Source of the DNA: an uncultured virus (IMG/VR IMGVR_UViG_3300023179_000081)
Lineage: Duplodnaviria; Heunggongvirae; Uroviricota; Caudoviricetes
Length of the DNA stretch: 64,000 nucleotides
Strand: one strand, 5' to 3'
IMG/VR virus record: IMGVR_UViG_3300023179_000081
In this document: positions 26,393-59,550 of the stretch, one piece after another
How positions within the stretch are numbered: position 1 is the stretch's first letter
Layout of the letters: the number at the start of each line of letters is the position of its first letter
Notes under the pieces: generated by a model
Seen by the model: the letters and a program-made list of their open reading frames with translations, nothing else
Database searches by the model: none
What the model was told of the DNA's origin: nothing
Program-made: the position numbers and the translations under genes

Positions 26393-26474
26393 TGCTTCGT
26401 TCCTACGTGCTTATTATACCGGCTTGGTTTGAGGGTGGGAAAATCCCGCGCGATTTTAGCGCGGGATTGTTGCT

Positions 26475-26696
26475 TTAGAGTTTTTCGATTGCGCCGTTGA
26501 TGATTTTGAGTTCGCGCTCAAAATCAGCAATAATGCTATCATGAGATTGTCCTGGATTCGGCGGGGTACCTTCCAAATGCTGTTCCAGGGCGTCAATATG
26601 GCTATTGCGTGCATATCGCAATAGCTGTTTGAGTTCGCATTTTCCGATCTCAACGTTGCCATTTTCCAATGGTGCGATTAGGATTCCTTTGATCAT
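26475..26696 (-). CDS. hypothetical cassette protein (family with 28099, 32598, 35252)
   Basis: Leaderless ATG after the element; LENGNVEI...LKQLL pattern. Confidence 0.65.
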   Translation of the reverse strand: MIKGILIAPLENGNVEIGKCELKQLLRYARNSHIDALEQHLEGTPPNPGQSHDSIIADFERELKIINGAIEKL

Positions 26697-26736
26697 CGTG
26701 CTTATTATACCGGCTTGGTTTGAGGGTGAGAAAATC

Positions 26737-26952
26737 CTACATGTTTCGCTGTGCATTTTGCTTGAAAAACTGAAATAAATCCCAGGTTCCATATACAATG
26801 CATGGAATTGCATTTGCAATACCGATGACCCATACAATTGGGTTGTTGGTGAAATAGAGTAGAAAAAGGCAGAAGATGGAAAGCCATGCTGCATATCCTT
26901 TGACAAAAAAGTCCACATACCAGTTCCAGATTTGTTTCAACGAGTTTTTCAT
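26737..26952 (-). CDS. small membrane protein
   Basis: Start corrected to the ATG after the element and AAGGA; two hydrophobic segments. Confidence 0.6.
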   Translation of the reverse strand: MKNSLKQIWNWYVDFFVKGYAAWLSIFCLFLLYFTNNPIVWVIGIANAIPCIVYGTWDLFQFFKQNAQRNM

Positions 26953-27073
26953 TTTGTTCCTTGTGGGTTTATTATACCCGGTCTTTCTGAGGGTGAGAAA
27001 ATCACTGTTGGGATTTCGGGATCTTGGCCAATTACACCAAGCGAGCCCTAATCCCAATAGTGATTTTATTGTT

Positions 27074-27283
27074 TTAGTACGCGCTGAGCATTTTTGCCGT
27101 CATAATGGCTTCTGCCCCCCGTGTACCTAGCATCTCTTTGTAAGCATCATAGCGTGACATCAGGTACTTGCGTCCCTGAGCGTCTACCCTTGGATTTTGT
27201 TTGATCCAAGCGTCTAGGTTCGCGTCAGAGTGAATACCTAATCTTGCAAGTGCGTCGATGTGAACCTTTAGCGGGGTTTTCAT
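27074..27283 (-). CDS. hypothetical cassette protein
   Basis: ORF follows the element and an AGGA leader. Confidence 0.65.
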   Translation of the reverse strand: MKTPLKVHIDALARLGIHSDANLDAWIKQNPRVDAQGRKYLMSRYDAYKEMLGTRGAEAIMTAKMLSAY

Positions 27284-27361
27284 TTCGTTCCTACGTGCTT
27301 ATTATACCCGGTCTTTCTGAAGGTGGGAAGTATCGCGCGATTTTAGCGCGGGATTGTTGCT

Positions 27362-27715
27362 TTAGTCCTCGTCGTCAGGTAGCGGGTCATTACTTGACCA
27401 TCGCGGAGTCATGCCGTAACCTTTTTGTTCACATTCTAGCGCCATCCATTTCGTGAACCAAAGACACAATCGCAAAGCGAGAACTTCTTTAAGGCGTTTC
27501 GGTTTTGTTGGATTGTTGAAATGGTCCTCGATTGAAACTAATGCTTTACGCCATGCTCTTGCAGAATGACACATTCCCTTTCCTTGAGATTGAATCATTT
27601 CAACAATACGCGTGATTTCGGCTTCAGAACTAGTTCCTTTACCGCTATTGAAAACTTTTGTCAGAAGCCAATGGGTGGTTAGGAAGATTTTTCGACTGTG
27701 AATGAATTTGTCCAT
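27362..27715 (-). CDS. hypothetical cassette protein
   Basis: ORF follows element 27735. Confidence 0.65.
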   Translation of the reverse strand: MDKFIHSRKIFLTTHWLLTKVFNSGKGTSSEAEITRIVEMIQSQGKGMCHSARAWRKALVSIEDHFNNPTKPKRLKEVLALRLCLWFTKWMALECEQKGYGMTPRWSSNDPLPDDED

Positions 27716-27769
27716 GTTTTTCTCTTCGTCGTGGTTATTATACCTCGATTTCGTGAAGGTGAGAAAATT

Positions 27770-28036
27770 CTAGGCTGGCCAAACGGTTTTAATGCCGTTA
27801 TTTTCTCGAATCTCAAGGTTTTGGATGGCTTTGGACACTGCGGCTAAAGTTGGAAAATTGCTACGGACATGAAGCCCAATAATACCGTTCTTCTCATTTT
27901 CGATGGAGTTACCCATGCGCACATTCCATTCGCCGTTTTTGCCAGAAATGCACACTACGCCAAGATTTGAATAACCTACGCGGTAGTTTCCAAATGGACT
28001 AAGTTTCGGTTCGATATTGAAGGGGATTTTTGCCAT
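27770..28036 (-). CDS. hypothetical cassette protein
   Basis: ORF follows element 28053; stop abuts the next element. Confidence 0.65.
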   Translation of the reverse strand: MAKIPFNIEPKLSPFGNYRVGYSNLGVVCISGKNGEWNVRMGNSIENEKNGIIGLHVRSNFPTLAAVSKAIQNLEIRENNGIKTVWPA

Positions 28037-28098
28037 GCTTTCCTTTGTTACCTTATTATACCCGGTCTTTCTGAAGGTGGGAAAAACCGGGTATTTCT

Positions 28099-28311
28099 TT
28101 AGAAGGGTTCTAGCCGATCTTTGGCGTTTTTAACACGTTGTAGCGATTGCTCCATAGTTTGGATAAGGCGCGGATTTCCGCCGCCGGTGTACGTTGCTCG
28201 GTCCACGCCGCCCTTGAATGCGCTTTCTGCGGCATTAAGAAGCCACTGTAGATCTTTGCTTTGGATGATGATTCCGTCGCCTTCGGCGAATTGGAGTTCG
28301 ATTGGGTCCAT
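28099..28311 (-). CDS. hypothetical cassette protein
   Basis: Leaderless ATG after element 28317. Confidence 0.65.
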   Translation of the reverse strand: MDPIELQFAEGDGIIIQSKDLQWLLNAAESAFKGGVDRATYTGGGNPRLIQTMEQSLQRVKNAKDRLEPF

Positions 28312-28352
28312 CGTGGTTATTATACCTGCCTTTTTTGAGGGTGGGAAAATCC

Positions 28353-28490
28353 TTAACTAAAGGACAATCCTATAACTGCAAAAGCGATGACTACAGGAAG
28401 TATTACCTGCAACAGGACTTCCTTGTCAGTCACCAGATCAAACGATTCCTTTAGGGTTCGCTTGCTAAAAATCTCTTTGATTTGCTTCAT
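28353..28490 (-). CDS. 45-aa membrane peptide (not in ORF track)
   Basis: MKQIKEIFSKRTLKESFDLVTDKEVLLQVILPVVIAFAVIGLSFS fills the space between two elements. Confidence 0.6.
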   Translation of the reverse strand: MKQIKEIFSKRTLKESFDLVTDKEVLLQVILPVVIAFAVIGLSFS

Positions 28491-28530
28491 GCCTTATTAT
28501 ACCCGGTTTGGGTAAGGGTCGGAAAATCCT

Positions 28531-28650
28531 TTAGCCTAAGATCATGCAAATGTCCATAGTTGCAATAACCATGATACATGGCAGGACCACAAACCAGAAC
28601 ATGTCAGCGTCGATTTTCGCGTTTCTCAAGAATGCGATTTGAGTTCTCAT
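28531..28650 (-). CDS. 39-aa membrane peptide (not in ORF track)
   Basis: MRTQIAFLRNAKIDADMFWFVVLPCIMVIATMDICMILG fills the space between two elements. Confidence 0.6.
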   Translation of the reverse strand: MRTQIAFLRNAKIDADMFWFVVLPCIMVIATMDICMILG

Positions 28651-28720
28651 CGTGGTTATTATACCCAATGGTTTTTGAGGGTGGGAAAATCCAGCGCGAT
28701 TTTAGCGCGGGATTCTTGCT

Positions 28721-28918
28721 TTAGACCAGCGCTACTTTGATGCCTCTAGCTTCGCCGTAGTAAAATGTCACTGCAACAACTTCGTAAATGTCGCCAGTTA
28801 CGGCGCATCGGTAAGTTTGCCCTTCCGTGAAAAGAACTTCTGTGTGTTCTGCAATTCTCATGTCTTTGAGCAGTCCTTCTTTGAACAGCTTCGTAACGAT
28901 GTACTTCTGATTCGCCAT
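28721..28918 (-). CDS. hypothetical cassette protein
   Basis: Leaderless ATG after element 28923. Confidence 0.65.
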   Translation of the reverse strand: MANQKYIVTKLFKEGLLKDMRIAEHTEVLFTEGQTYRCAVTGDIYEVVAVTFYYGEARGIKVALV

Positions 28919-28997
28919 GCCCTTATTATACCTCGATTTCGTGAGGGTGAGAAAATTGGACAGAATTGAGGGACTTTGCTATTGTCCCTCAATTGCT

Positions 28998-29429
28998 TCA
29001 GCTGTATTTCGCTACGTATTCCTGATCGGCTTCCAGCGATTCAAAAAGCACCGAAGATTCGCTATTGCCAGTTTGTGACAAGATGACTTTTGCACCACCT
29101 GGACGCTTAGCCACAATCATAAGAGGTGGTCCGTAGTTGGGATGCTGATAAAGCACATTTCCTTCATTAGTGGCAATCCTCAGAATTCGGTGGGTTGCAA
29201 TTGGCATACCGTTCCAATCCCGACGGTTCTTCATTAGCAACAAAATGGGTTTTGCGCCATTGCTGCGTCCGATATATCCCTTTGTGTTAAAGGTTACTGA
29301 ACCATCTTCAGGATCGCCGAAGCTTAGGTTAACATTTAGAATTCCATTGGGCCACAAGTTTTCCAAGATCGCGATTACCTGCGGATCGGTGCCGTTCTCG
29401 TAATGAGTTGGACTTAAGTGAGCGTTCAT
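28998..29429 (-). CDS. hypothetical cassette protein
   Basis: Leaderless ATG; followed by a hairpin at 28964-28994. Confidence 0.7.
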   Translation of the reverse strand: MNAHLSPTHYENGTDPQVIAILENLWPNGILNVNLSFGDPEDGSVTFNTKGYIGRSNGAKPILLLMKNRRDWNGMPIATHRILRIATNEGNVLYQHPNYGPPLMIVAKRPGGAKVILSQTGNSESSVLFESLEADQEYVAKYS

Positions 29430-29820
29430 CGTGCTTATTATACCTCGATTTTGTGAGGGTGAGAAAAACCGCGCGGGTTCCGTGAAAGGAAAAACCGCGC
29501 GGTGAAGGGACGAAAGTTATTTGATTGTGAGGGTGAGAAAGGTGTTTAAGTTACTTCATTTTGTTTGCCTTAGTCCTTTGGTAGTCCTTTATCCTCGATT
29601 TCGCTTTCGGGATGTTCGTGCCATTTTGTTGCGACTTCGTCGCGCGGCTTTTGCCTTGGCTGGCGATTGGGTGAATTTCGGTCCTTGCGTCGGCGCTTGA
29701 ATGGGTTCGGCGGAGCCAGCGGCGAAGGCGGCGAGTACGTATGCTAGAGCGTTCATGATGTTTGTTGTTCCTTGCGTTCTTATTATACCCAATCTGGGTA
29801 AGGGTGGGAAAATTGTTCGG

Positions 29821-30129
29821 TTAGTTTGCCTTTGATTTTTCGATTCGTTCCACAGCTTGCCTTACTGCTTCTTTCTTGAGACAGACAAGACCAGCCGGTG
29901 TTGGATAATCATCTCTATTAGTGAAAACTTGCCTAGTGACTAATAGATGCATTCTGTCCCATTCTCCAATTCCAATATGATTGTAGTTTGGATCTTCAGC
30001 ACTAATACACCTTTTCACCATATCGTGGTTTCGAGATAAAACCACTCCTAGTTCTTCTACCATAGAACCGTAATATTCACGGTGGGTGACTTTGCCTTCA
30101 AGGTAGTCTTTGCGTTTGATTTATCCCAT
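29821..30129 (-). pseudogene. cassette gene with in-frame TAA at codon 3
   Basis: ATG GGA TAA ATC AAA CGC AAA GAC TAC... continues in frame into ORF 29821..30063. Confidence 0.55.
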
Positions 30130-30187
30130 GTTCGTTCTTATTATACCCAATCTGGGTAAGGGTGGGAAAATCCCACCCTTTGGCTTT

Positions 30188-30676
30188 TTAGCCGCAAGTG
30201 ATGCTTTCGATGTTTTCAACCTTAATAGCGTTGAACGGCACCGATACCTTGCCGTCGGCACTTGGTTCTGACTTTTCTGGTCTTTCCGCGTATTCGTTAG
30301 CAAGTAGCATATGCTGAATACTAGCCAACGTAACCTCTTTGCCATCGTATAGCCATTGTACCTTTGGCTTATTGCCAGTTACTGGCATTGGGAAGTATAC
30401 CTGTCCGTTTTTTCCGCGCCAGAACTTCACACCGGAAATGTAAAACGGCTCTTGGATGTGCTGCGGTAGCGCTGGTGCAACCATATTGCCAGCGGCAATA
30501 GCTTGCTTGACCGGCCCCCGGCTTGCGTAGTCACAATTTTGCCCTTGGTACACGGACCTTTTTGTGATATTTTCGCCTTTGTAAGCCGCCCTAAGATTGG
30601 CCGGGCGGTTTACCGTTACAGTGAAGATGCGTCCTTTTTTGGCTTCCAGGACTGATGCGATGCTGTTAGCGTTCAC
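30188..30676 (-). CDS. hypothetical cassette protein
   Basis: Leaderless GTG after element 30681. Confidence 0.7.
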   Translation of the reverse strand: MNANSIASVLEAKKGRIFTVTVNRPANLRAAYKGENITKRSVYQGQNCDYASRGPVKQAIAAGNMVAPALPQHIQEPFYISGVKFWRGKNGQVYFPMPVTGNKPKVQWLYDGKEVTLASIQHMLLANEYAERPEKSEPSADGKVSVPFNAIKVENIESITCG

Positions 30677-30728
30677 GCCCTTATTATACCCAATGGTTCT
30701 GAAGGTGAGAAAATGACGATGTTCTAAG

Positions 30729-30765
30729 AAAAAAAAGGACTAAGGTTTTGGGTTACCTTAGTCCT
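30729..30765 (-). terminator. intrinsic terminator
   Basis: AGGACTAAGGT/ACCTTAGTCCT 11-bp stem followed by a T-run on the minus strand. Confidence 0.7.
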
Positions 30766-30784
30766 GATCCAGATTGTGAATTTG

Positions 30785-31063
30785 TTACTGGTTCCTGTTT
30801 CTCCAGCTATCCCAGTTAATCCTCTTTCTCACAACTAGCTTGTCAGGTTCGTATCTAGCGCACAATTCTTGATGTAGCGCCTTATACTCTTCTGGCTTTG
30901 CGAGACGTCCGCGAATTACCCAAGACGGGCATGCTTCGCCATGTTGGCCAACATATAAGTAGGTCATAATCCTATTTTGGTTCGTCTCTACGGTTGGCAA
31001 GATCGCCACCACATCACCATCAATGTAACGGTAGATGACCGGAATTTCTGTAGCTGTGCTCAT
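30785..31063 (-). CDS. hypothetical cassette protein
   Basis: Leaderless ATG; YVGQHGEA...A.PEEY.AL..EL motif. Confidence 0.7.
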   Translation of the reverse strand: MSTATEIPVIYRYIDGDVVAILPTVETNQNRIMTYLYVGQHGEACPSWVIRGRLAKPEEYKALHQELCARYEPDKLVVRKRINWDSWRNRNQ

Positions 31064-31126
31064 CGTGCTTATTATACCTCGATTCCGTGAGGGTGAGAAA
31101 ACCGCGCCCTAATTCTGTGGGTTTCT

Positions 31127-31402
31127 TTATTTCAAAACGCCCAAAGACCAGGAACTAAAATGTTCACATGCCTTTTTGCTGTCAATGGGGCTTAATGGCC
31201 CAAGGTTGCGCCATTCTAGCAGCTTTGATGCTTTCAACCTCACGATGCTTCCACCACCTTTTGGCATTTTGTAAACGGTTGACTTATCCTTAGATAACGA
31301 TGCCCAAAATGGCACATTTTCTTCGGTATCTTCCATCTTATGCCAGACGCCATCGCGAACAAGTAATGGCAACATGCTTATAGTACGCGGATTGTGTCTC
31401 AT
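31127..31402 (-). CDS. hypothetical cassette protein
   Basis: ORF follows element 31418. Confidence 0.6.
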   Translation of the reverse strand: MRHNPRTISMLPLLVRDGVWHKMEDTEENVPFWASLSKDKSTVYKMPKGGGSIVRLKASKLLEWRNLGPLSPIDSKKACEHFSSWSLGVLK

Positions 31403-31466
31403 TTTTCGTTCACGTCCTTATTATACCCGGTCTCTTTGAGAGTGAGAAAACCGGGCACAATTGTGA

Positions 31467-31712
31467 TTAAGCCGTTGGAAAGTAGTCTCCATAATCGCGC
31501 TCATCCAGATTGCCATCAAAATCAAGATGCTTGATCTCGAACATCGCGCGTTCATCACCAATGTGAAAAAAAACGCTCGTTTTATCGGATTGACGCCAAA
31601 GGATTCCGCCGACACCCTTTACACGTTCGTAAACGTATGGGCTTGTAGTCGCGCAAGTGCCGGGTAGGCAGTGCAGACTTTTATCTGGTTCCTGAGTTGG
31701 GAGTTTCGCCAT
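31467..31712 (-). CDS. hypothetical cassette protein
   Basis: Start corrected to the leaderless ATG (MAKLPT). Confidence 0.6.
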   Translation of the reverse strand: MAKLPTQEPDKSLHCLPGTCATTSPYVYERVKGVGGILWRQSDKTSVFFHIGDERAMFEIKHLDFDGNLDERDYGDYFPTA

Positions 31713-31771
31713 GTCCTTATTATACCTCGATTTCCTGAAGGTGAGAAAAAAGAGATAGGCGGTTTCCCGCC

Positions 31772-31957
31772 TCAATTGTAATCGTGGTTATCCCAGTATT
31801 CTTGGCAGACACTAGGATTAGGGTTGTACGGGTCACCCACCGCTAATTCAAATCGTCGAGTGTCTTCGCCGGGCTGAAAATATGGCCCGTCAACGCCGTT
31901 TTTCAGCAGAATTGCACCACCAGCCGAGTCCCATTCGATTGTGTATTCGTTGTCCAT
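31772..31957 (-). CDS. hypothetical cassette protein
   Basis: Start corrected (MDNEYT). Confidence 0.6.
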   Translation of the reverse strand: MDNEYTIEWDSAGGAILLKNGVDGPYFQPGEDTRRFELAVGDPYNPNPSVCQEYWDNHDYN

Positions 31958-31993
31958 GACGTTATTATACCCACCCATTTTGAGGGTGGGAAA

Positions 31994-32269
31994 CTACAAC
32001 ATACAACACAAAACTTTTGCTTTAGAACACATATAGGTTATTGTATTACCGTGGTCATCCGTAAAATCTGGCTCTAAATCTTCGCTAGGCTTTACTATAT
32101 AGACGTATCCATCATAACCTGCGTATTGTTGCGCTATGCCAATAACTGTAGTGACATAAACATCTTCCATTCTTTCACCATGTCCCGAATCTTGCCCAGG
32201 CACGATGAATTGCCCGTTGTCTATATATTGCAAAGAGCCATGATAGAATGTCAATTCCCCGTGTTCCAT
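31994..32269 (-). CDS. small ADP-ribosyltransferase-fold protein (Arr-like)
   Basis: FYHGS...IVPG...VYVTT...A..YA...GYVYIVKP...LEPD resembles the H-Y-type ART fold. Confidence 0.55.
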   Translation of the reverse strand: MEHGELTFYHGSLQYIDNGQFIVPGQDSGHGERMEDVYVTTVIGIAQQYAGYDGYVYIVKPSEDLEPDFTDDHGNTITYMCSKAKVLCCML

Positions 32270-32597
32270 CGTCCTTATTATACCCGGTCTGATTGAGGGT
32301 GAGAAACTACGGGCCAAATTTCCCAAGCATATTTTGAATGTTAATATGTTCGATTTTGTTCCAAAACTTTGGCAATTGTGTGAATCACCATATCTTTATC
32401 TTTAGGATCAAAATTAAACTCCAGGGATTCATAAATTAACTCAGCCAATTCAACATCACTTTTACCACAAAACCCATATATTGACGATTGTTGACTATGC
32501 ATTTCTTGGTTTAATTGTGCGAATGTTTTCATATCTTGTGTTTTAAGGGTGGGAAAATCCCGCGCGTTTTTAGCGCGGGATTGTTGCTTTAGCCAGC

Positions 32598-32795
32598 TTA
32601 TTTGTCTAGCTTATAGATGGCAGAGTCAATGTTTTCGACTAATTCATTGAGTACGGCAACTGAAACAGTGCCGGAATCGCCGATCTTTGCAATGTCATTT
32701 ATTACAGATTGGCGAGTGGTTTGCAAAAGCCACCTAAGCGTTTTTTCGTCGATAGAGAATTCACCGCCTGGGAGTTGTTCCACGTATATCAGCAT
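32598..32795 (-). CDS. hypothetical cassette protein
   Basis: Start corrected (MLIYVEQL). Confidence 0.6.
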   Translation of the reverse strand: MLIYVEQLPGGEFSIDEKTLRWLLQTTRQSVINDIAKIGDSGTVSVAVLNELVENIDSAIYKLDK

Positions 32796-33313
32796 GTCGT
32801 GCTTATTATACCCGGCCATGGTGAGGGTGAGAAATATACTTCTCAAATGTAGGTGAGCTGTGGAAATCCGTCTACTTGATACCCTGATCGCCAATTTTTA
32901 GCTACTTGCCATTTTTCGAAACTGATCCATTCGTAGATGATTTGCCCGTCATCAAGAAGCCGCGTATAGAATATGTCACGATTGTCATCTATTTGCTTAA
33001 CTTCGTCAAGAATTTCGGTGATATTCACTCGTTCCCCTTTTGAGTTAGTGTAGTATGCGATTATGTCAGTTTTTAGCATTAACAACCCTAAGCAATGATC
33101 TGCTTACTCCAGAATACCCAATTGCCGTTTCTGCTCCTTTCCCAAATCTTTGCAGGTAGACGCATTCGCCACAATCTGAAACGCTCTTGACAATTCCCCA
33201 TCTGTCTGGATCATCAATGAATTCAGCTATTTTTCCAGGGATAAACTCTTCTTCCATGCCCTTATTATACCTCGATTCCGTGAGGGTTGGAAAATTTTCA
33301 CCTTAATCTGATA

Positions 33314-33850
33314 TTATTTCTTAATCAGATCTTGGAAAGATGGTCCGAATAATTCGAGAAAATCTGCATGCATCTTTTCCATCAGTTGTGGCAGTCTTGC
33401 ATTAAGCACGTTTTTGAGTTCTTCTGATTTTGCAACGGCTTCAGGAGTTTTATATCCCAATTGCTCATTATTCATCAAAGATTCAATGTCAATGTCCTGG
33501 TCGCTATCTAATACACCCCAGATGATATGAGATTTAAGTGTGTCCGAGTTCATGGCATCAATATATTGTGTGAACCCTGCATGATACAATGCATTTGCAA
33601 TGTAATGCATTGGACCATCGTTCACATTGCAAAGATGCCATTTGATGTATTTCTTAAATTCAGGAAAAGCTTCCGCAATTTCTACATGAATACAACCGGC
33701 GGCATAGTGACCGCCAGCGCCGATTTCTCCAGTGATTGAGAAATATGGACCCTGTCCAAGATCCACCAATTCTGCAAGCATGCTGATATTTAATTGCTTG
33801 CCGCAGTAGTTAATGGTGGTTGATCGTCTTACCTGGGTTTTCTGTTTCAT
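33314..33850 (-). CDS. hypothetical cassette protein
   Basis: Leaderless ATG; YFSITG...GCIH.EI...KWHL...GPMHY motif. Confidence 0.75.
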   Translation of the reverse strand: MKQKTQVRRSTTINYCGKQLNISMLAELVDLGQGPYFSITGEIGAGGHYAAGCIHVEIAEAFPEFKKYIKWHLCNVNDGPMHYIANALYHAGFTQYIDAMNSDTLKSHIIWGVLDSDQDIDIESLMNNEQLGYKTPEAVAKSEELKNVLNARLPQLMEKMHADFLELFGPSFQDLIKK

Positions 33851-34284
33851 GTCCTCATTATACCTCGATTTCGTGAGGGTGAGAGAATAGAACCGCGCGG
33901 ATTCCGTGAAAGGAAAAACCGCGCGGTTAAGGGACGAAAATTATTTGTTTTTGAGAGTTGGAAAGGTGTTTTAAGTTACTTCATTTTGAGTTTTAGGGGC
34001 GGTTTTGCCGCCCCAATGACATGAATATGATCTCAACATGACGAACTGCTTTTTATTAAAAGCATAAAAATTGCTTGGCCGTCGGTGGTGGTTAGACCGC
34101 TCACCATTCCGCGCATATTATTTGGTAATATTTTGCGGTTGCCAGATTTTTTCTGACTATAGGGTCTCTTTATTCTTCTATCCGATATTTTATTCGCGGC
34201 CAAATCTGAACGTTACGCCATTATTATACCCAATGGTGCTGAGGGTTGGAAAATGGGCGGTGTCTCCCGCCCATTGTAATCAAG

Positions 34285-35199: not shown

Positions 35200-35251
35200 G
35201 CCCTTATTATACCCGGTCTTTTTGAGTGTGAGAAAACCGGGCAAAATTGAT

Positions 35252-35467: not shown

Positions 35468-35489
35468 GTCTTTATTATACCCAATGGTT

Positions 35490-37180: not shown

Positions 37181-37181
37181 A

Positions 37182-49930: not shown

Positions 49931-49934
49931 GTGT

Positions 49935-50273: not shown

Positions 50274-50288
50274 GTCGTTATTATACCT

Positions 50289-51887: not shown

Positions 51888-51931
51888 GTCTTTGTTATAC
51901 CCGACGTCCGTGAGGGTTGGAAAATCTTCGC

Positions 51932-52363
51932 TCATTCCTCAACCTCTACGAACGCTAGTTTCACGCGCTTCCCATGCTTGTTGCGCAGAAGAATTGGCGT
52001 ATCCCAACCATTATGTTGGATGTAGCCGTTACGTTCGAGGGTGTCAAATTTTGTAGCCATATCAAGTAAGTTTGCCCAACTGAGATCGAATTCGTCTGCA
52101 ATCTCCTGCATGGTTGGTGGTCTGAAGTTCTCAATTGTGAACTTCTCAAGAAACGCCAAGATATTTTCTTGGTATCTGTCTAGCACAACTACTTCAGCAT
52201 TTTTTAGATCGGCTGCCGCTTCGTAGAGTTCGTCTTGCCAGTACCCATGGTCAACGTACATGTTGTTGCGCTGTGCTTGACTTTCCCACTTGTTGGCATC
52301 AAGTGTCTTTTCGCATTGAATTACTTGACGTTTCGACCTGTCGTATCGTTCTTGCTTTGTCAT
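51932..52363 (-). CDS. protein with LexA-like N-terminal wHTH segment
   Basis: QENILAFLEKFTIENFRPPTMQEIADEF...LERNGYI resembles the LexA DNA-binding domain; no peptidase domain. Confidence 0.55.
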   Translation of the reverse strand: MTKQERYDRSKRQVIQCEKTLDANKWESQAQRNNMYVDHGYWQDELYEAAADLKNAEVVVLDRYQENILAFLEKFTIENFRPPTMQEIADEFDLSWANLLDMATKFDTLERNGYIQHNGWDTPILLRNKHGKRVKLAFVEVEE

Positions 52364-52557
52364 TATTCATCCCCGTAAAGCCTCATGCGCTTCTCTTCAA
52401 TCTTGCGATTTCGTCGCTCAGCTTTTCGTTCCTTATCTTCATGAGCACCAAACCCAGAGTACGAATTGTGTCCCGTAGGTGGAAACAGATTCACTTCTTC
52501 AGTTCGAGTTTTATTTCCCAAGGTTAAACGAATCTTGGTTTTAGCTTTCTTTGCCAT
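52363..52557 (-). CDS. small basic protein
   Basis: Leaderless ATG after element 52562. Confidence 0.65.
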   Translation of the reverse strand: MAKKAKTKIRLTLGNKTRTEEVNLFPPTGHNSYSGFGAHEDKERKAERRNRKIEEKRMRLYGDE

Positions 52558-52595
52558 GTCTTTATTATACCTTTTGTGTGTGAGGGTTGGAAAAA

Positions 52596-52913
52596 CTAAT
52601 TTTCCCAGCTAAGGACAAATAAATGGTCGGCCCAAGAAACTTTATAACCTAAGTCCATAAGAGTTTTGGTCACAATCTCTCTTGCTCCTTCAGACAAGGG
52701 TTGAACAATATTGCGCCATTGAACGTTAATAATCTCAAGTTTGTATTGGCCATCTCTTGCTCGTGCTTGACTGGATTCCAAAACAATATCTACAAAATTA
52801 CTTGAATCATTATGGTCTTTTTCATCTCTTTCGGTGCGCACACGATCTGCTATAGATCGTAGAGATTGCGCCGTAGGAGTTTTGGATTTTTTTTCGTCTT
52901 GGATTGGTAGCAT
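52596..52913 (-). CDS. hypothetical cassette protein
   Basis: Start corrected. Confidence 0.6.
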   Translation of the reverse strand: MLPIQDEKKSKTPTAQSLRSIADRVRTERDEKDHNDSSNFVDIVLESSQARARDGQYKLEIINVQWRNIVQPLSEGAREIVTKTLMDLGYKVSWADHLFVLSWEN

Positions 52914-52951
52914 GCCTTTATTATACCTTTTGTGTGTGAGGGTTGGAAAAT

Positions 52952-53467
52952 TCAATCATAAAACCGACGGACTACATATTGGAATACCCAATCCTCAAAA
53001 GGATAATCATTTTCATCAAAGTAGTTTTTGACAAAAGCTCCAGCGGCGGCTTCAGAAGTAAACCTGCCGGTGGACTTTTGACCCGCAAAGTCACACCATC
53101 CTCTTCGGTCTATATTAACCTCAATTACGTAGTATTCAGAAAAAGGAACCAGCATTTCATTGAAAAATTGCCGCGCGTCGGGCAATTTTTTGAATCTCCT
53201 ATTTGCTTCCCGCCCGTAGCCCGTATCATAGGTTACTTGGAACTCGGGTAATCGGTTGGGTTCCGGTTTTTCTTCCCATGCAGGCTGATATAAAAATAGT
53301 CGCAAAATCCTATTGCCATTTTCCACTTTTTGGCAAGCATTAAGTTTAGCAATTGCGTAATCGTTCCGCTCAATAAAAGTTACACCATTGTGAGTAACTT
53401 CTCTTTCCGCGAATTCAGTCTTTGAGTTGAATCTTGGCTTCCTAGTCGTATTCATGCCACTTTCCAT
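52952..53467 (-). CDS. hypothetical protein
   Basis: ORF track; stop abuts the next element. Confidence 0.65.
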   Translation of the reverse strand: MESGMNTTRKPRFNSKTEFAEREVTHNGVTFIERNDYAIAKLNACQKVENGNRILRLFLYQPAWEEKPEPNRLPEFQVTYDTGYGREANRRFKKLPDARQFFNEMLVPFSEYYVIEVNIDRRGWCDFAGQKSTGRFTSEAAAGAFVKNYFDENDYPFEDWVFQYVVRRFYD

Positions 53468-53904
53468 GTGATCATATCTTCCGTTTGTACAAACTCGCCT
53501 GTGCTTTCCTCATCAATAATGCGGTACTTCGTGCCTTCTTTAAGAACAGCAATTTGCATAACTGCATGCTCTCCATAAGCAAGCTCTTCCAACTCTTCAA
53601 CCACTTGAACAAGTGCAGGGTCTGTACGCTCAAATATGAAGCAAGACATCGTGTATTTCTTGTAAAGTTCTCGCGATAATCGTTGCTCATCTTCGGAAGC
53701 TTTTCTATATTCTCGCTGGTCAAAAATAATACCAACACGCTCTTCCGGTGATACCGTCCAGTATTCATTGACACCGCGCTTGTTTTTTTCTACGTAAAGC
53801 GGAATGCCTTTTAGTTCAGCATAGCGCTTCATTCCTTCTTCGCTAATGCCAAACACACCTGGCTCACTATTGTAGACGATCTTTACCATCTTCTCTGTGT
53901 TCAT
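53452..53904 (-). CDS. hypothetical protein (paralogue of the 54385 C-terminal domain)
   Basis: RYAELKGI...YWTV.PEER...R.DPALVQVVEEL. Confidence 0.75.
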   Translation of the reverse strand: MNTEKMVKIVYNSEPGVFGISEEGMKRYAELKGIPLYVEKNKRGVNEYWTVSPEERVGIIFDQREYRKASEDEQRLSRELYKKYTMSCFIFERTDPALVQVVEELEELAYGEHAVMQIAVLKEGTKYRIIDEESTGEFVQTEDMITWKVA

Positions 53905-53940
53905 GTGTTTATTACACCTTATATCCGTGAGGGTTGGAAA

Positions 53941-54321
53941 TTAATCCTTAGGCCTGATCTTTACAAACAATGACTCCAAAAGATCCTTTAGGAGACCTGT
54001 AGCAATTGCATAGATGATGAAAAATGCCCAGAGATGTGGGATGGTTGCTGGGCTGATCAAGAGATTGATAATCCACACAACAATAAAGAAAACACTAAGC
54101 GACTTAATCATACTCCAGGTCACTGCCAACTTCCTAGCGCCGCGAATTTGATCCCTAGTCAACTGACCGTCAAGGGCCTGGATTGCCGGGTGCCGCTTAT
54201 CTCTTGGGTCAGGGACAAATGCTTCTTCATCGTCTTCACCATTTATGTTAACCATGAGATTCATCTTAGGGGGAGCGTACTGATTGGTTTTATAGATTGG
54301 TTTTTGTCTTTCGTTCTTCAT
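53941..54321 (-). CDS. membrane protein
   Basis: Two TM segments; stop abuts the next element. Confidence 0.65.
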   Translation of the reverse strand: MKNERQKPIYKTNQYAPPKMNLMVNINGEDDEEAFVPDPRDKRHPAIQALDGQLTRDQIRGARKLAVTWSMIKSLSVFFIVVWIINLLISPATIPHLWAFFIIYAIATGLLKDLLESLFVKIRPKD

Positions 54322-54384
54322 GTCTTTATTATACCTTTAGATTGTGAGGGTTGGAAAATCTGGGCAGATGCGGTTCTCGAAGTT

Positions 54385-55059
54385 TTAAGCTACTAGCCAA
54401 TCGGTTTCGTCATAGATTTCTACGAATTCCTCCGCATATGGACTACTTATTCTGTATTTAGTACCTCGCGCGATTTCCACAATTCCCAACTCTGAGCGCC
54501 TTCCGTTAGCTTCTTCTCCTAATTCCTCCACTACTTGGACGAGTGCTGGGTCCGCACGGTAAATTTTTTCAGAGCACAAAATATAGTTGTTGTATAATTC
54601 AGCGGATAACTTGCGAGCTTCCCAAGTAGCCTGATTCCATTCGTAAATATTGTATAGTGCTCCTGTGCGCTCTTCCGGCGGCACCGTCCAATACCGCCAG
54701 CCTGTTAGTCCATCATCTTCTACCCATAGCTTGATACCTTTAAGCTCGGCATATCGGCGCAAACCTTTATCACTTAGGAGAAACATGTTGTCGGATTTGT
54801 TTATCACAATTTTTACCATCGGCGGGACTTCAGGTTCTACAAGAAACTGACACGCACGATCATGTTCTAAAATCTTGCCGTCTACCAGGTCTGCCATCAC
54901 GTAGTTTTCGCCAGAATCGTCGTTCGATATTGCCGTGATAAGTAGTGTATCCCGGTCTACGATGGGCCAAGCATCCGGTACTACGAAGTATTCCATAGCT
55001 GAAATATGCTGTCCGATAAACCGTGCAGCTTCGTTGGGGTTGATTTCGATAATTTCCAT
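54385..55059 (-). CDS. hypothetical protein
   Basis: GAGG leader; paralogue of 53452. Confidence 0.75.
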   Translation of the reverse strand: MEIIEINPNEAARFIGQHISAMEYFVVPDAWPIVDRDTLLITAISNDDSGENYVMADLVDGKILEHDRACQFLVEPEVPPMVKIVINKSDNMFLLSDKGLRRYAELKGIKLWVEDDGLTGWRYWTVPPEERTGALYNIYEWNQATWEARKLSAELYNNYILCSEKIYRADPALVQVVEELGEEANGRRSELGIVEIARGTKYRISSPYAEEFVEIYDETDWLVA

Positions 55060-55539
55060 TGTTTTTTCCTCGTGTTTATTCTACTCGGTGATTGTGAGTC
55101 TCAATTAGTCGTTATTATACCTTGGGTTCGTGAGGGTTGGAAAATTTAGTGTTGACATTCGAAGATGACCCATGCACCTGCGTAGCATCTGTCAAGTATA
55201 CCCGTTACTGCCAAAAGTTGGTCAAGATCGTCAAAAAGATTCATAATAAGAGCAAATGTAATGTCAACCATGAATGCGTGAATTAGTTTATAAACTTCAA
55301 GGCAACAAATGTATGTTCGCACTCCATCTCTTTCGCCGATTAATTGGCAATCGCTAAAATGAAAACAATAATCTCCGTGATCGAAAATTCTGTAGCCGCA
55401 GCCTGCAATAGCATTTGCGCCAATTTCCAAAAGCACATGATTAATTAACTTTACGGAGATATACGGGTCAATAGAATGGAAGTAAAGTAATCCTATCATG
55501 TCCCGGTGATTATTCGTAACTACAGTGGTCATTGTTTTG

Positions 55540-55812
55540 TTAGATTTTGTTGTCTTTAATGTAGCTTGCGATTGAGTCAAGGTCGTATGGTAAGCTAAGC
55601 TCAGAGAAATGCTGCTCTAACTCGCCCATCCACAGCGGCTCACCGTTTGTAGTGGCGAAGAAAGTACCATTTTCGCACTCATAAAGCCGAGCAGCTTCAT
55701 CAAATTGTTTTCCATTGTCGCAGATGAAACGGAATCGAGAGCCAACTGGGTAACTGCCGTTGAGAGATGAAGAACCGAAGTATTCGAGGTCGAGAGGGTA
55801 AGTATTGTGCAT
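55540..55812 (-). CDS. hypothetical cassette protein
   Basis: Follows element 55834. Confidence 0.6.
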   Translation of the reverse strand: MHNTYPLDLEYFGSSSLNGSYPVGSRFRFICDNGKQFDEAARLYECENGTFFATTNGEPLWMGELEQHFSELSLPYDLDSIASYIKDNKI

Positions 55813-55874
55813 AGCGGTTTGCCTTTGTGTCCTTTATTATACCTTTAGTTTGTGAGGGTTGGAAACCGCGCGGA

Positions 55875-56528
55875 TTAGGATACCATTACAAAATCACCAT
55901 CGTCATCTAGTTTATAGAATACGTTCGGAAGAATTCCGTTTTCTCCGACATATGCCGTTTTAATGCGGCAGCGTGAACCGCCCATAAACTCAATAACTAA
56001 AATTCCATTGTCGCCGGATGCGCATTGTCCACCATAACCCGAAGTACTTGTTCCACCATAGCCTGAAATACTCGTTCCATAGTCGCCAGAAGTGCTTTTT
56101 CCTTCGCGACCAGAAGTACTTGTTCCATGGTATCCAGAAGTACTCGTTCCATAGTCGCCAGAAGTGCTTTTTCCTTCGCGACCAGAAGTACTTGTTCCAT
56201 GGTATCCAGAAGTACTTGTTCCATGGTATCCAGAAGTACTTGTTCCTTCGCGACCAGAAGTACTTGTTCCATGGTATCCAGAAGTACTTGTTCCATGGTA
56301 TCCAGAAGTACTTTGAACGATTCCTTCCTCATTCCATGTGAAGTTAGGAGTTCGAAGGTGTTCTAGATCGTAACCTTCGACAACAAGCCATCTGAAGTAT
56401 TCAAATTGCCCCTGGCGAATAGTTTCCAGTGCTGGATCGAGTCCTGCGTCAAATGCGGCCTTGGCGAATTCAATACCGCTATCGCAAGCGTCGTCTGCAA
56501 TAAGATTTTCGATGGTGAGCTTTTTCAT
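55875..56528 (-). CDS. 8-aa repeat protein (TSTSGYHG repeats)
   Basis: Leaderless ATG; 24-nt tandem repeat. Confidence 0.8.
   Translation of the reverse strand: MKKLTIENLIADDACDSGIEFAKAAFDAGLDPALETIRQGQFEYFRWLVVEGYDLEHLRTPNFTWNEEGIVQSTSGYHGTSTSGYHGTSTSGREGTSTSGYHGTSTSGYHGTSTSGREGKSTSGDYGTSTSGYHGTSTSGREGKSTSGDYGTSISGYGGTSTSGYGGQCASGDNGILVIEFMGGSRCRIKTAYVGENGILPNVFYKLDDDGDFVMVS
56035..56312. repeat. 24-nt coding tandem repeat (~11-12 units)
   Basis: ccagaagtacttgttccatggtat and variants. Confidence 0.85.
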
Positions 56529-56567
56529 TGTGATTATTATACCTTGTGTTTTTGAGGGTTGGAAAAT

Positions 56568-57137
56568 TCAGGAAAGATACGTGCCTGCCGCAATGCAATC
56601 TTTAATCATGCTTCTAGTGCTGGCAGATACTGAATCGTACATATTCCATCCTTCAGCGTTAGTAAAAACATCACCATCAAATAAGCGAAGCACGCCAGCC
56701 TCGGCATTATACGCAACAGACTTTGTAACGCAAGTAGCAACAATGCCATCAAATGCTGGAGTTAATTCCGGGAAGTTAATAGCATTTCGAGCCGCTAAAA
56801 GCGCATATCTTGCCGAATCATTACAAGAAGCAAATTCGGATTGAGAAGCGTATAACTTCGCCCATTCGAAGGCAGAAGTTGGTTCCGATAATTGATCATA
56901 CTGATAACACAGAACTGAGCGATAAATATTATTGGCTTCTTTATTAAAATCTTCCAATTGATTTGCACTCAGTTCCTTGCCTGCAATACGTAAATTAAGA
57001 AGCCATACAGCGTGATCAATCACAAAGCCGACAACTGGGTAGATATTTCGATCTAAATCTAGTGCGAAGGTGAGAAGATATCGGTTAAATTTAGCATTGA
57101 TGATTAGTTGATCGGCGTTTTCTTCGGAAATGTTCAT
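56568..57137 (-). CDS. hypothetical cassette protein
   Basis: Leaderless ATG. Confidence 0.7.
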   Translation of the reverse strand: MNISEENADQLIINAKFNRYLLTFALDLDRNIYPVVGFVIDHAVWLLNLRIAGKELSANQLEDFNKEANNIYRSVLCYQYDQLSEPTSAFEWAKLYASQSEFASCNDSARYALLAARNAINFPELTPAFDGIVATCVTKSVAYNAEAGVLRLFDGDVFTNAEGWNMYDSVSASTRSMIKDCIAAGTYLS

Positions 57138-57595
57138 TGTCGTTATTATACCTTTAAATTGTGAGGGTTGGAAAAACAGTTAAGACCATGACTTCAGCTT
57201 AGGAATTTGATTTAGCATCCATAAGTATTCTGGGTTGTTTCTGTCATTAGCGCTCCAATACCGCGTTAGAAACATAAGAGTCCTAAGATCGTAGAATTTG
57301 ACACCAAGTTTATTTGCTTTAAACATGGATTCCAAAGCGGCTTTTACCCATGCTCTTGCTTTAGTGCTACCTTGAGTCAAAACAACTCGTTTTAAACTAA
57401 GGTCATCTACCCCGGTAACAACCCACTCTCCGCATACTATATTAGCGTTTAGGGAAAGCATGCCTGAATGTAGATTTGCTAATTCTTCTGAGTTACGAAA
57501 CTTATGTCCACAAGAATCAATGATAGGAAATTTCATCGCACGAACCGAAAGTGGCTTACCCAGGCTTTTTTTATGGTAAGATAAAGCTGTTGCCA

Positions 57596-57904
57596 TTAGA
57601 CAGTTGGCCACCCGCAATTGCTGCGCAACCCATTTTTGAGTGCGTCTGCCGCTTTCTTGCCATTTTTGAGACCAATTGGTGGCAAGTGAATGTCGTGTGC
57701 TTCATCCATAGTGATTTGGATGGCCCCGTTAGAATAAAGGGTAATGCTGACGACATCATTGATTAAAAATTTTGGGTGTGTATAGGTCATCCAGGAATTA
57801 GAAATACCCTTGACCAATTCCCAACCACTCCAATCGTATCCCTGAAATTCTTTTGGAACCTCAGTTCCGTCGGCGAGCGTGTTTGAGTTTTTGTATTTTC
57901 TCAT
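57596..57904 (-). CDS. hypothetical cassette protein
   Basis: Leaderless ATG. Confidence 0.65.
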   Translation of the reverse strand: MRKYKNSNTLADGTEVPKEFQGYDWSGWELVKGISNSWMTYTHPKFLINDVVSITLYSNGAIQITMDEAHDIHLPPIGLKNGKKAADALKNGLRSNCGWPTV

Positions 57905-57942
57905 TGTGCTTATTATACCTTGTTCGCTTGAGAGTTGGAAAA

Positions 57943-58572
57943 TTATGCTTCGATTAATTGTCGGAGTAGACCCGAAAAGTTAATATCACTCCACTTTACG
58001 CCAGTTTTACTATTTGGGGTGATGGCGATCAGTGCGCAAACCGCCCAATGAATTTTCAATTCAAAGATAGTATCATTATTATAATAATTGAGATAACTTA
58101 AAGTATGACTAAGGCCATATTTGATTGCGAACGAATGAAGTTCAGGAAAGTCATAGTTGTCACGTTCAGGCTCAAGATTTGTGATCATAGCATCCCAATC
58201 ATCACCTACTCCTTCTTAATCTGCAATCGGCTGGTATTGCTTTAGCAACTCCCACACAAAAGCAACAATCAGCGTGAGTCTCTTTTTCTCCTTTTCTTTA
58301 TCGCGACCAGTACCAGCCGCAAGCGGAAGAAATGCCTTCCACTTCTTAGTGTTTCGCATCCTGCCGGGCATTTCATCCTGCATTCTGACAATAAATTCTC
58401 CAATAACATTACTCATATAATCTGGAGTTACGTCAGTGTGAGTGCCAGTGACCGCGAGATTAATTGCAACGATGGAGCAGACTGATGTTTCGGTTTCCGT
58501 GCCACGTGAGAGTGTTTGCCCGACTAAGAAATCCGCGATCTTCTTTTCTTGTGCTTCAGTGATGGTGCTCAT
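57943..58572 (-). pseudogene. paralogue of the 48124 gene split by an in-frame TAA (58216-58218)
   Basis: QPIAD*EGVGDDWDAMITN vs QPIADKDGIGDDWLAMITD; ORFs 58216..58572 and 57943..58188 are in the same frame. Confidence 0.75.
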
Positions 58573-58625
58573 GGGATTATTATACCTTGTGTTCTTGAGA
58601 GTTAGAAAAACGCGCCAGATTAAAT

Positions 58626-59087
58626 CTAGACCGGCACCTTCATGCTACATACAAGTACTTGTCCATCTAGCAAAATCGCTTTAATACATGCAAGATAGAC
58701 TTTTACCATATATGCGTTATCGCCCCATTTATCTCGCGCCAGCGTTTCAGTGGTCGCGTTGTATTCAAAAACATCAGTGGGATGGCCATGAGCATCCAGA
58801 TGCTCTTTGACTTCAGGCCCAGTGTATGCAAGCACATAGTCGCCACAAATTTCGAAGATACCATACTTTTGTAACACCGCGCGATAGTGCTCTTTGAAGA
58901 ATGATCCCCGCTCACGCAACTTATTAGCGGTTTCAAGTTCATCCTCAAATTTTCGTTTACTGAACCACGAGAATACTAAACCTTCGTTGATATTATGGTC
59001 AATACGCAAGTCCAATTCAAACAAGCTCTTTCCGTTTTCGAAGAGTTCCATCTGATTTGGTTCGTATTTAAAAGTTTTATCGCTCAT
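58626..59087 (-). CDS. hypothetical cassette protein
   Basis: Leaderless ATG. Confidence 0.65.
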   Translation of the reverse strand: MSDKTFKYEPNQMELFENGKSLFELDLRIDHNINEGLVFSWFSKRKFEDELETANKLRERGSFFKEHYRAVLQKYGIFEICGDYVLAYTGPEVKEHLDAHGHPTDVFEYNATTETLARDKWGDNAYMVKVYLACIKAILLDGQVLVCSMKVPV

Positions 59088-59125
59088 GTGATTATTATAC
59101 CTTGTTCGCTTGAGAGTTGGAAAAT

Positions 59126-59512
59126 CTAAATGACTTTGTTAATTACGATTTCAAAACCACCATAATAACCATTGTGTTCATTGTGATTTGCAAAAGAAAT
59201 GTTGCCACGATCAGTGATGATTACCAAGAATTGAATTGCACTAGAATGTGAATCCATCATATCAAATTCATCATCGACCCATTCTTCCGTTGCTTCTCGC
59301 AATTCTATTGAGAGAAAAGTTGCGCCTACATATTCGTCCAGACCATCATCTGTGGTCATATAGCGCCTTTCACAGCAACTTCGCTTGCTGTCGTAGATGT
59401 CAAACAGATTGTCACCAATAGAGAGCCTAAGTACACTATAATCGCCTGATTGACCAAGGACAATTGACGTGATTTTTCGGCCAGATAATTCATTGAGATC
59501 TTCTAATTGCAC
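59126..59512 (-). CDS. conserved-looking phage protein (SCCE...HNGYYGG)
   Basis: Leaderless GTG; SCCERRY and NEHNGYYGGF motifs. Confidence 0.7.
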   Translation of the reverse strand: MQLEDLNELSGRKITSIVLGQSGDYSVLRLSIGDNLFDIYDSKRSCCERRYMTTDDGLDEYVGATFLSIELREATEEWVDDEFDMMDSHSSAIQFLVIITDRGNISFANHNEHNGYYGGFEIVINKVI

Positions 59513-59550
59513 GTGATTATTATACCTTGTTCGCTTGAGAGTTGGAAAAT

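Follow-up and report, generated by a model that had tools for sequence, protein, structure and literature searches.

In a 64,000-nt stretch of an uncultured lake phage (IMG/VR record IMGVR_UViG_3300023179_000081; hereafter the window, which is part of the genome only), the minus strand carries an array of 77 promoter-plus-gene cassettes at 24974..63436. Almost every small gene in it is preceded by its own copy of one promoter-like element with a variable 9-nt core, here called the spacer. Neighbouring copies share letter-perfect spacers more often than in any shuffle, the identity is confined to the promoter, and at three sites a related phage has a single promoter in place of the two identical promoters and intervening genes of the window. 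We consider it probable, though far from certain, that homologous recombination between the promoter repeats excises and inserts cassettes, with some patch conversion in addition.

The copies were identified by a position-weight scan of both strands of the window, and their coordinates are given as the plus-strand position where TATTATA begins. The scan found 77 same-strand copies at 24974-63400, the spacer having 9 nt in 76 of them and 10 nt in one (28657), and none at 1-24900 or on the other strand; the array may extend beyond the window end. An earlier note on this DNA had placed the array at 26411..59550, where it indeed lies, but within limits that prove too narrow. On the plus strand the motif is TATTATACC-N9-TGAGGGTKRGAAAA; as a minus-strand element it becomes (A/G)TTTTCyxACCCTCA-N9-GG-TATAATA, with TTCyCA, CCCTCA, nine variable nucleotides, GG and TATAAT in this order. 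The copies match the sigma-70 consensus TTGACA-17/18-TATAAT at 10 of 12 positions with a spacing of 17-18 bp, the -35 hexamers seen being TTCCCA, TTCTCA and TTTCCA, and 86 promoter-like sites lie at 26.0-46.0 kb vs 40.1 +/- 6.9 in shuffles. From the sequence we infer that the elements are host-type (sigma-70-like) promoters of an accessory-gene region, whose genes are probably expressed early. Each copy precedes a minus-strand open reading frame (ORF) of 25-358 aa.

The spacer varies widely, as the earlier note had claimed: the 76 copies hold 47 distinct spacers, 12 of which are singletons, and 50 of the 2850 possible pairs are identical. Identical spacers are concentrated among neighbours. 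Nine adjacent pairs are identical vs 1.33 expected (maximum of 7 in 10,000 shuffles), and 17 identical pairs are found at a rank distance of <=3 vs 3.9 expected (shuffle maximum 14). The mean Hamming distance at lag 1 is 4.40 vs 5.58 (sd 0.20), and the Mantel correlation of the spacers (rho 0.168) was reached by none of 2000 shuffles. The claim that sharing is local is thus upheld by a permutation test of Hamming distance against rank distance. Shuffles restricted to blocks of 6, 8, 12 and 19 neighbours gave p = 0.03, 0.023, 0.0014 and 0.0006, respectively; since the excess survives them, a short-range effect lies atop a regional one. On the regional scale, the families CGAAATCGA, GAAAGACCG and GAACCATTG are located at 26.9-45.7 kb and the group formed by CAATCTxAA and CAAACACAA mostly at 38.7-63.4 kb, and variants of the conserved box also occur in blocks (Mantel rho 0.122, p 0.0005).

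Every one of the ten identical-spacer groups named in the earlier note is present in the sequence, at most 1 nt from where the note had put it, and all are on the minus strand. Seven are pairs. The copies 26412/26703 (26412..26736; plus-strand spacer GGCTTGGTT, exact tract of 32 nt) flank the gene 26475..26696 of 73 aa; 29781/30139 (29775..30172; CAATCTGGG, 39 nt identical) go with the gene 29821..30063, and 37565/37960 (37557..37993; TCGATTTCG, 42 nt identical) with the gene 37610..37954. The spacer of the latter pair is also found at 27736, 28924, 33856 and 39173. Between 38956 and 39779 (38956..39812; CTGCGTTTG) stands the unlike copy 39173, together with the gene 39231..39773. The pair 42653/43120 (42653..43153; CTCAGATCG) flanks the gene 42677..43114, the pair 44855/45222 (44855..45255; TTCAGATCG) has the gene 44857..45216, a paralogue of 26048..26392, and the pair 52563/52919 (52563..52952; TTTTGTGTG) has an exact tract of 35 nt. 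The other three groups are trios: 26970/27300/28054 (26970..28087; CGGTCTTTC), interrupted by the unlike copy 27736; 34970/35473/35799 (34969..35832; CAATGGTTC), of which the earlier note had named the first two copies, with the genes 35002..35199, 35309..35467 and 35490..35792; and 57911/59093/59518 (57911..59551; TTGTTCGCT), interrupted by the unlike copy 58578, in which 59093 and 59518 have 42 nt in common exactly.

In neighbours with identical spacers, the identity runs from near ATTTTCC to the ATG or just before it, and the upstream flanks are ~25% identical. Exact tracts measure 22-42 nt in the nine adjacent identical pairs vs a median of 13 nt and a maximum of 20 nt in the 66 other adjacent pairs; a tract of >=30 nt occurs in 12 of the 2850 pairs, 11 of which are at a rank distance of <=3. 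An all-against-all blastp comparison (E<=1e-3) of the 76 downstream genes gave nine paralogue pairs, none of them a pair of identical-spacer neighbours, in agreement with the claim that the identical copies flank unrelated genes. Three DUF6197 genes at 48986-51887 belong to these paralogues, as do the pairs 48124..48762/58216..58572 and 50289..50852/55875..56528. Where paralogues are adjacent, at 48986..49324 and 49935..50273, their spacers are unlike. The genes 26048..26392 and 44857..45216 are paralogues that lie far apart; they differ in spacer, and each has the spacer of its own neighbour. These patterns of paralogues and flanks indicate that the unit that is copied or exchanged is the promoter and not the promoter plus gene. 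A foreign composition of the cassettes between identical pairs was ruled out, their GC content (0.422) being no different from that of the others (0.438 +/- 0.043).

Many copies are mosaic. The copies 26412 and 27300 agree over 32 nt on the upstream side, in a terminator hairpin, and over 23 nt of the leader on the downstream side, and differ in a patch of ~25 nt that comprises the box and the spacer; homogenisation by local recombination, one of the two origins offered in the earlier note, fits such copies. Several identical-spacer pairs differ at 3-10 other positions of the element (27-34 of 37 matches). In the trio at 34969..35832, the copies 34970 and 35473 have the box and the spacer in common, and 35473 and 35799 the spacer and the pre-ATG bases, not the box.

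Contigs of four public runs were compared with the window over 26000-45990. Two of the runs (X6 and X8) contain the same strain as the window; their contigs tend to end at promoters instead of jumping. The run X10, from another study and year, contains a relative that is ~95-96% identical (35 of 788 and 43 of 1057 letters differ). The results on X10 come from contigs, not reads, and are among the 15 of 49 joints and 32 of 369 pieces listed. The X10 contigs are colinear with the window, and five promoter-bounded segments are skipped among the joints listed. At the joint 29774->30133 (record 2, 2199 nt, depth 43), 358 nt are skipped and 39 nt fit both sides; the absent segment 29775-30132, with one promoter and the gene 29821..30063, corresponds to the pair 29781/30139. 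At 34968->35798 (record 4, 5337 nt), 829 nt are skipped and 20 nt fit both sides, so that the three cassettes of 34969-35797 are absent, corresponding to the pair 34970/35799; the promoter of X10 at this place is the gene side of 34970 joined to the box side of 35799. At 37556->37952 (also record 4), 395 nt are skipped and 42 nt fit both sides; the absent segment 37557-37951, with the gene 37610..37954, corresponds to the pair 37565/37960. At each of these three sites, two identical promoters of the window, together with one or three genes, correspond to a single promoter in X10. The other two skips, also on the minus strand, remove the cassette 26712..26984 with the gene 26737..26952 (joint 26711->26985, 273 nt, with CACACG between) and the segment 36391..36640 with the promoter 36396 (joint 36390->36641, 250 nt). 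Identical-spacer pairs thus account for three of five well-supported promoter-bounded skips (binomial p ~0.006, with a baseline of ~13 identical-spacer pairs among ~150 pairs at a rank distance of <=3 in the region).

The depth of X10 over the skipped segments is that of flank-only cover (for the bin 37339-38005, 272/667 x 43.4 = 17.7, as observed), and hence the cassettes are absent rather than skipped by the assembler. A jump of the assembler at repeats longer than its word, which we take to be k=31, is ruled out by this depth. Nor is the array itself an artefact of assembly, since four contigs from other assemblies (Ga0214917_10001676, Ga0214921_10004052, L035 and L067) represent the same phage and are 99.95-100% identical to the window across the repeats. 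These contigs have no informative indel, only gaps of 9 nt and 1 nt at 36693 and 45138. Over 21,979 aligned bases, Ga0214921_10004052 differs from the window only at 36693-36701, by a 9-nt indel (CAAAACAAG, a direct-repeat slip), and at 45138, by a 1-nt indel.

A pattern scan of metagenome contigs yielded 100 loci, many of them from distant relatives in which the same promoter forms one-directional arrays. Their nine nucleotides are nearly invariant: CACAATCTG occupies 74 of 119 copies on 12 non-redundant contigs, with CAAATCGAG and CAAAATCTG among the rarer forms. Such uniformity leaves only a weak positional autocorrelation in the relatives (lag-1 Hamming distance 1.82 vs 2.10, p = 0.007; one adjacent pair of identical minority spacers vs 0.88 expected). 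Genes shared with the window have 34-93% amino-acid identity and a shuffled order. The relatives differ mutually by indels and replacements of cassettes that end in promoters or within ~20 nt of them, as revealed by the comparison of the contig L070 with L040, L085, L023 and L039. The single promoter 4899 of L040 matches both promoters 3151 and 4487 of L070, which has three extra cassettes in between; the comparison of these two contigs follows the main alignment diagonal. L085 is without the L070 segments 6467-6868 and 7652-8024 and has one promoter per joint, and L023 and L039 provide further promoter-bounded cases vs L070.

One gene can be followed through several of these phages. Eight other contigs have the gene 39231..39773, which encodes a helix-hairpin-helix glycosylase-like protein of 180 aa, at 88-90% nucleotide identity; the sequence around it on these contigs is otherwise not related to the window, and the homology stops at the promoter. 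Its promoter has the spacer CAAACGCAG in the window, equal to that of copy 38956; CAAAATCTG in L064, equal to that of the neighbour; CACAATCTG in L076, equal to those of the neighbours; and CAAATCAAG in L069, L072, L074 and L091. Hence four different spacers precede the gene across the phages, each equal or close to the spacers of local neighbours. The upstream half of the promoter goes with the site, not with the gene.

We propose the following mechanism, which is the simplest account and of a kind already demonstrated in T4-type phages (see below). Each small gene has a promoter of its own, which in most cases directly adjoins the start codon. As ~40 nt are repeated in direct orientation at intervals of ~500 bp, the promoters would act as portable homology. 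A general recombination system of the phage or the host would exchange DNA between two copies, excising the cassette or cassettes between them and leaving one chimeric repeat; the reverse exchange would insert a promoter-plus-gene circle or fragment at a resident copy. As a matching spacer gives 22-42 nt of unbroken identity, two to three times that of other neighbours, exchange should be far more likely between like copies. Insertion by crossover would leave two copies that agree in the core and differ in the outer parts, a configuration seen at 34970/35473/35799, and copies with the same spacer and another box, or another 5 nt before the ATG, are the hybrids to be expected. Because each insertion would leave two copies sharing the crossover stretch, identical neighbours could be both footprints of past exchanges and hot spots for new ones, and repeated insertion beside like copies would build local clusters of one core. 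The mosaic copies, together with the third spacer that X10 has at 26711->26985, suggest that short-patch conversion also contributes. The recombination pathway and the circular intermediates are putative, and each X10 difference may be a gain or a loss, tracts of 39-42 nt being too short for an argument from divergence.

Several observations weigh against cassette exchange as a complete account. The earlier note had expected two identical copies around a newly gained gene and one in the empty allele; this is borne out at 29781/30139, 34970/35799 and 37565/37960; it fails at 26711->26985, where the flanking promoters are unlike and the single promoter of X10 has a third spacer, and at 36390->36641, where the promoters flanking the skipped segment have unlike spacers. 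Spacers therefore also change in ways that the exchange model alone leaves unexplained. No indel was found at the other identical pairs among the X10 joints listed, and both copies of 42653/43120 are present in X10, where record 5 is unbroken over 41761-43141. Moreover, the X10 differences could be deletions in X10 between copies that were already identical, and the cause of the spacer identity would then have to be sought elsewhere, for instance in conversion or in a previous insertion.

Such a cause is at the centre of an alternative in which the promoters evolve in concert by short-patch gene conversion only: 10-40 nt would be copied between mispaired neighbouring promoters during recombination-dependent replication or repair, no gene would be moved, and the X10 indels would be secondary deletions at homogenised tracts. 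The mosaic pair 26412/27300, the identical-spacer pairs that differ at 3-10 other positions of the element, the clustering of box variants by position, the third spacer of X10 at 26711->26985 and the almost uniform spacers within the genome of each relative are all in line with it. Reciprocal crossovers, however, yield hybrid copies equally well, and conversion does not by itself predict the cassette indels at identical pairs (three of five). Nor did the X10 pieces listed include a place with unchanged genes and altered spacers only. Either reciprocal exchange or conversion may have given rise to the identity; conversion without any movement of genes seems to us rather unlikely. It is still less probable that the nine nucleotides are an operator or specificity determinant and that spacers are shared because co-regulated genes sit together. 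A protein-binding site would fit the near invariance of the nine nucleotides in the relatives (CACAATCTG in 74 of 119 copies) and the excess of ACAATCTGA outside promoters described below, and the window does have a few spacer families with regional ranges. Nevertheless, 47 distinct spacers in 76 copies, 12 of them singletons, are too many for regulatory classes; the outside-promoter enrichment concerns the CAATCTG family only; letter-perfect identity extends past the spacer into positions that are variable elsewhere, and does so in near neighbours only; the adjacency excess persists in block-restricted shuffles; and indel joints at identical pairs are not predicted.

Two further readings have very little probability in our view. 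If promoter and gene were duplicated in tandem and one gene copy then diverged or was replaced, paralogues would be expected, and a few exist in the array, but none of the nine paralogue pairs coincides with identical-spacer neighbours, the adjacent paralogues 48986..49324/49935..50273 have unlike spacers, and beyond the edges of promoters that are themselves letter-perfect no identity is left. Tandem duplication of gene plus promoter is rejected on these paralogue and flank comparisons. The other reading, equally remote, is a dedicated acquisition machine that copies the repeat at each insertion in a polarised manner, as in clustered regularly interspaced short palindromic repeats (CRISPR) or integrons, and leaves a chronological array; the earlier note had suggested both a CRISPR-like copying step and spacers that record the order of acquisition. 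Filled alleles with two identical copies and empty alleles with one, at three sites, are what such a machine would give. Its absence is suggested by the 96 window proteins scanned against Pfam, among which no cas, integrase or recombinase family was found, and the homology at the joints, 20-42 nt, is of the kind that ordinary homologous exchange leaves; no joint needs a CRISPR-like copying step to explain it. A chronological record is unlikely, since the identical pairs are scattered over 33 kb (26.4-59.5 kb) and not gathered at one end, and the gene order is shuffled among the relatives.

A more specific version of homologous exchange between promoter repeats may also be considered. We tentatively suggest, as a possibility that we hold to be more doubtful than the exchange itself, that the 9-nt core serves as a homology address: efficient integration of a cassette would require a resident promoter of matching core next to it, and the array would grow by local budding of cassettes with like addresses. 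If true, this would be a recombinase-free, integron-like gene capture, the insertion history of which could be reconstructed from the cores, the hybrid boxes and the pre-ATG bases. The uniform core CACAATCTG of the relatives would then represent the opposite strategy, any cassette being exchangeable at any site.

Part of the spacer may have a function of its own. For ACAATCTGA, the sequence that forms the invariant promoter spacer in the relatives, we counted 19 occurrences in the window vs 0.93 expected (19 being reached in 0 of 100 shuffles), mostly outside promoters; for the other spacer families no enrichment outside promoters was found in the window. Eight copies lie at 46089..46320 (no strand assigned) in the sole long promoter-free gap, 45.7-48.0 kb, and this cluster includes a perfect tandem repeat of 21 nt x 3.6 at 46142-46216 (ACAATCTG repeats). 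Tandem repeats with the CAATCTG motif, likewise without an assigned strand, are located at 24133..24603, just past the last cassette. The invariant core of the relatives and the clusters outside promoters suggest that part of the spacer is probably functional. ACAATCTGA looks like the site of a putative DNA-binding protein, located between the -35 and -10 hexamers, and its clusters are iteron-like; they may be binding sites of a regulator or of an origin-binding protein. Such a site would apply to the relatives and to part of the promoters of the window, and would explain neither the letter-perfect identity of neighbours nor the indel joints. The statement of the earlier note that promoter function alone does not need shared spacers must therefore be qualified for the nearly invariant nine nucleotides of the relatives and for the motif clustered outside promoters; otherwise it holds.

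Other copies of this core were noticed in passing. Single copies of ACAATCTGA lie at 13221, 14176 and 15077 on the plus strand, ~900-950 nt apart and near the 3' ends of the similar-sized tandem ORFs 12310-13260, 13250-14215 and 14205-15122, which may be paralogues. The core of the relatives is inverted in two spacers, CCCAGATTG (window copy 29781) and GATTGTGTA (L076:1640), and therefore occurs in both orientations inside promoters.

Among described systems, the closest to the array are the promoter-early stem-loops (PeSLs) of the T4-type phages RB49/phi1, T4/PST and KVP40/nt-1 (Arbiol et al. 2010, PMC2839356; Comeau et al. 2014, PMC4122927). PeSL exchange was demonstrated experimentally in RB49/phi1, where a flanked ORF is replaced by a single chimeric motif, and the density is ~50 PeSLs per genome in phi1 and RB49 (PMC2839356). 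The likeness comprises sigma-70-like repeated promoters before orphan genes in a plastic genome region, a cassette between two motifs in one phage vs one chimeric motif in its relative, and homologous exchange without a dedicated recombinase. The array differs from the PeSLs described there in that its copies are without a Shine-Dalgarno site (the start codon is 4-6 nt past TATAATA in 57 of 77), a strong stem-loop stands beside only ~17 of 77 copies, and the density is higher (77 copies in 38 kb). Its variable 9-nt core creates homology classes, the matching members of which are local, a feature not described for PeSLs in the parts of these reports that were consulted. Furthermore, no T4 core gene was seen among the larger proteins of the window, which is part of the genome. 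By analogy, the array would work like PeSL-mediated modular shuffling in a promoter-only form.

The array can also be compared with other repeated elements. The early promoters of T4 are promoters of the host RNA polymerase that have conserved positions beyond the hexamers and are repeated before small early genes; in the array, by contrast, the extra conserved sequence consists of CCCTCA and a family-specific 9-mer, and the predicted mRNAs are leaderless. Like an integron, the array is one-directional, contains unrelated small genes with a repeated recombination site between them, and appears to gain and lose cassettes singly, possibly as circles. An integron, however, has a tyrosine integrase with attI, and attC sites that bound promoterless cassettes. 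In the array the repeat is the promoter itself, one per cassette, exchange appears to be homology-dependent, and the window proteins and repeats revealed neither an integrase nor an attC-like structure. The resemblance to CRISPR consists in a repeat on either side of each variable insert and one more repeat per insert; the differences are that the inserts are genes of 25-358 aa, not short unique spacers, and the repeats are promoters with variable cores, not near-identical short repeats, that no cas genes are present among the scanned window proteins, and that the array has no polarity, whereas CRISPR acquisition takes place at the leader end. A full-text literature search yielded nothing on this phage lineage or on promoter cores shared by neighbours, and we believe that a variable core shared by neighbours and linked to filled and empty alleles in a natural population is new.

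Genes of unknown function have their main reservoir in the accessory regions of phages, and the mechanism by which these regions turn over has been detailed only for a few T4-type phages. Our results would extend promoter-mediated shuffling, in a stripped-down form, to an uncultured lake phage lineage without a cultured relative. The variable core is a natural internal marker, so that exchanges leave readable footprints in the form of identical cores and hybrid flanks, and population metagenomes can score these footprints as filled and empty alleles. Consequently, the rate of cassette exchange and the homology length that it needs should be measurable from environmental data. The co-occurrence of the core motif of the relatives with iteron-like clusters points, in addition, to a putative DNA-binding regulator of the promoters.

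Promoter and start codon lie close together in most cassettes. The start codon follows TATAATA after 5 nt in 37 copies, 6 nt in 19 copies and 4 nt in one copy (57 of 77), and it lies within 3-8 nt of TATAATA in 63 of 77 copies (59 ATG, 4 GTG). A distance of 4-6 nt leaves no room for a ribosome-binding site, and if the -10 hexamer occupies -12 to -7, position +1 or +2 would fall on the A of the ATG; the mRNAs are thus probably leaderless in most cassettes. Longer leaders, of 16-75 nt, are found at ~14 copies, most of them located at 24.9-30.2 kb. Leaders of 16-24 nt with an AGGAAC-like ribosome-binding site were observed at 24974, 26412, 26970, 27300, 27736, 28054 and 29781; these copies cluster at the downstream end of the array (24974-30172), and leaderless copies dominate elsewhere.

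The 45 nt upstream of the promoter fold at <= -10 kcal/mol in 17 of 77 copies and at <= -8 kcal/mol in 29 of 77 copies vs 25% of random 45-mers, and 30 terminator-like sites were counted on both strands vs 18.0 +/- 4.3 in shuffles. With this weak enrichment only, universal terminator hairpins at the copies were ruled out. A terminator-like module (CTAAAGCAACAATCCCGCGC-loop-GCGCGGGAT) is found at 26436-26470, 27325-27355, 28690-28725 and 32549-32590; it abuts a promoter at three of at least four sites and is a second repeated unit, which combines independently with the promoter cores.

Pfam matches at E<=0.001 were obtained for 16 of 76 array proteins and include ArdC-like, RNA ligase, GP88-like and helix-hairpin-helix glycosylase-like products as well as the three DUF6197 paralogues. 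Among the 26 larger proteins of the window, itself part of the genome, no T4 core family was found. In protein searches the cultured relatives were distant, with <=46% identity for the RNA ligase and <=52% for the GP88-like protein, and a window protein of 763 aa had no match. A DNA search of 50,697 phage records revealed no relative, the sole match being tRNA-Leu, and a scan of a viral contig collection gave no match. The metagenome runs that contain the window are labelled lake water or freshwater.

Composition changes sharply at the edge of the array, from a GC content of ~0.36 at 1-24900 to ~0.43 at 24900-64000. The region 1-24900 has larger genes on both strands and zero array promoters; its genes include GMP reductase/IMPDH-like, superoxide dismutase-like, PD-(D/E)XK nuclease and PcfJ-like ones. 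Inside the cassette gene 55875..56528, a 72-nt tandem repeat with a 24-nt sub-period extends over 56003-56314, and a weaker version is present at 50506-50627 in the paralogue 50289..50852; the repeat number differs between the two genes (217 vs 187 aa). A tRNA-Leu gene (anticodon TAA) lies on the minus strand at 40472-40557, between two cassettes, and the X10 relative, which skips 40471->40558, appears to be without exactly this gene.

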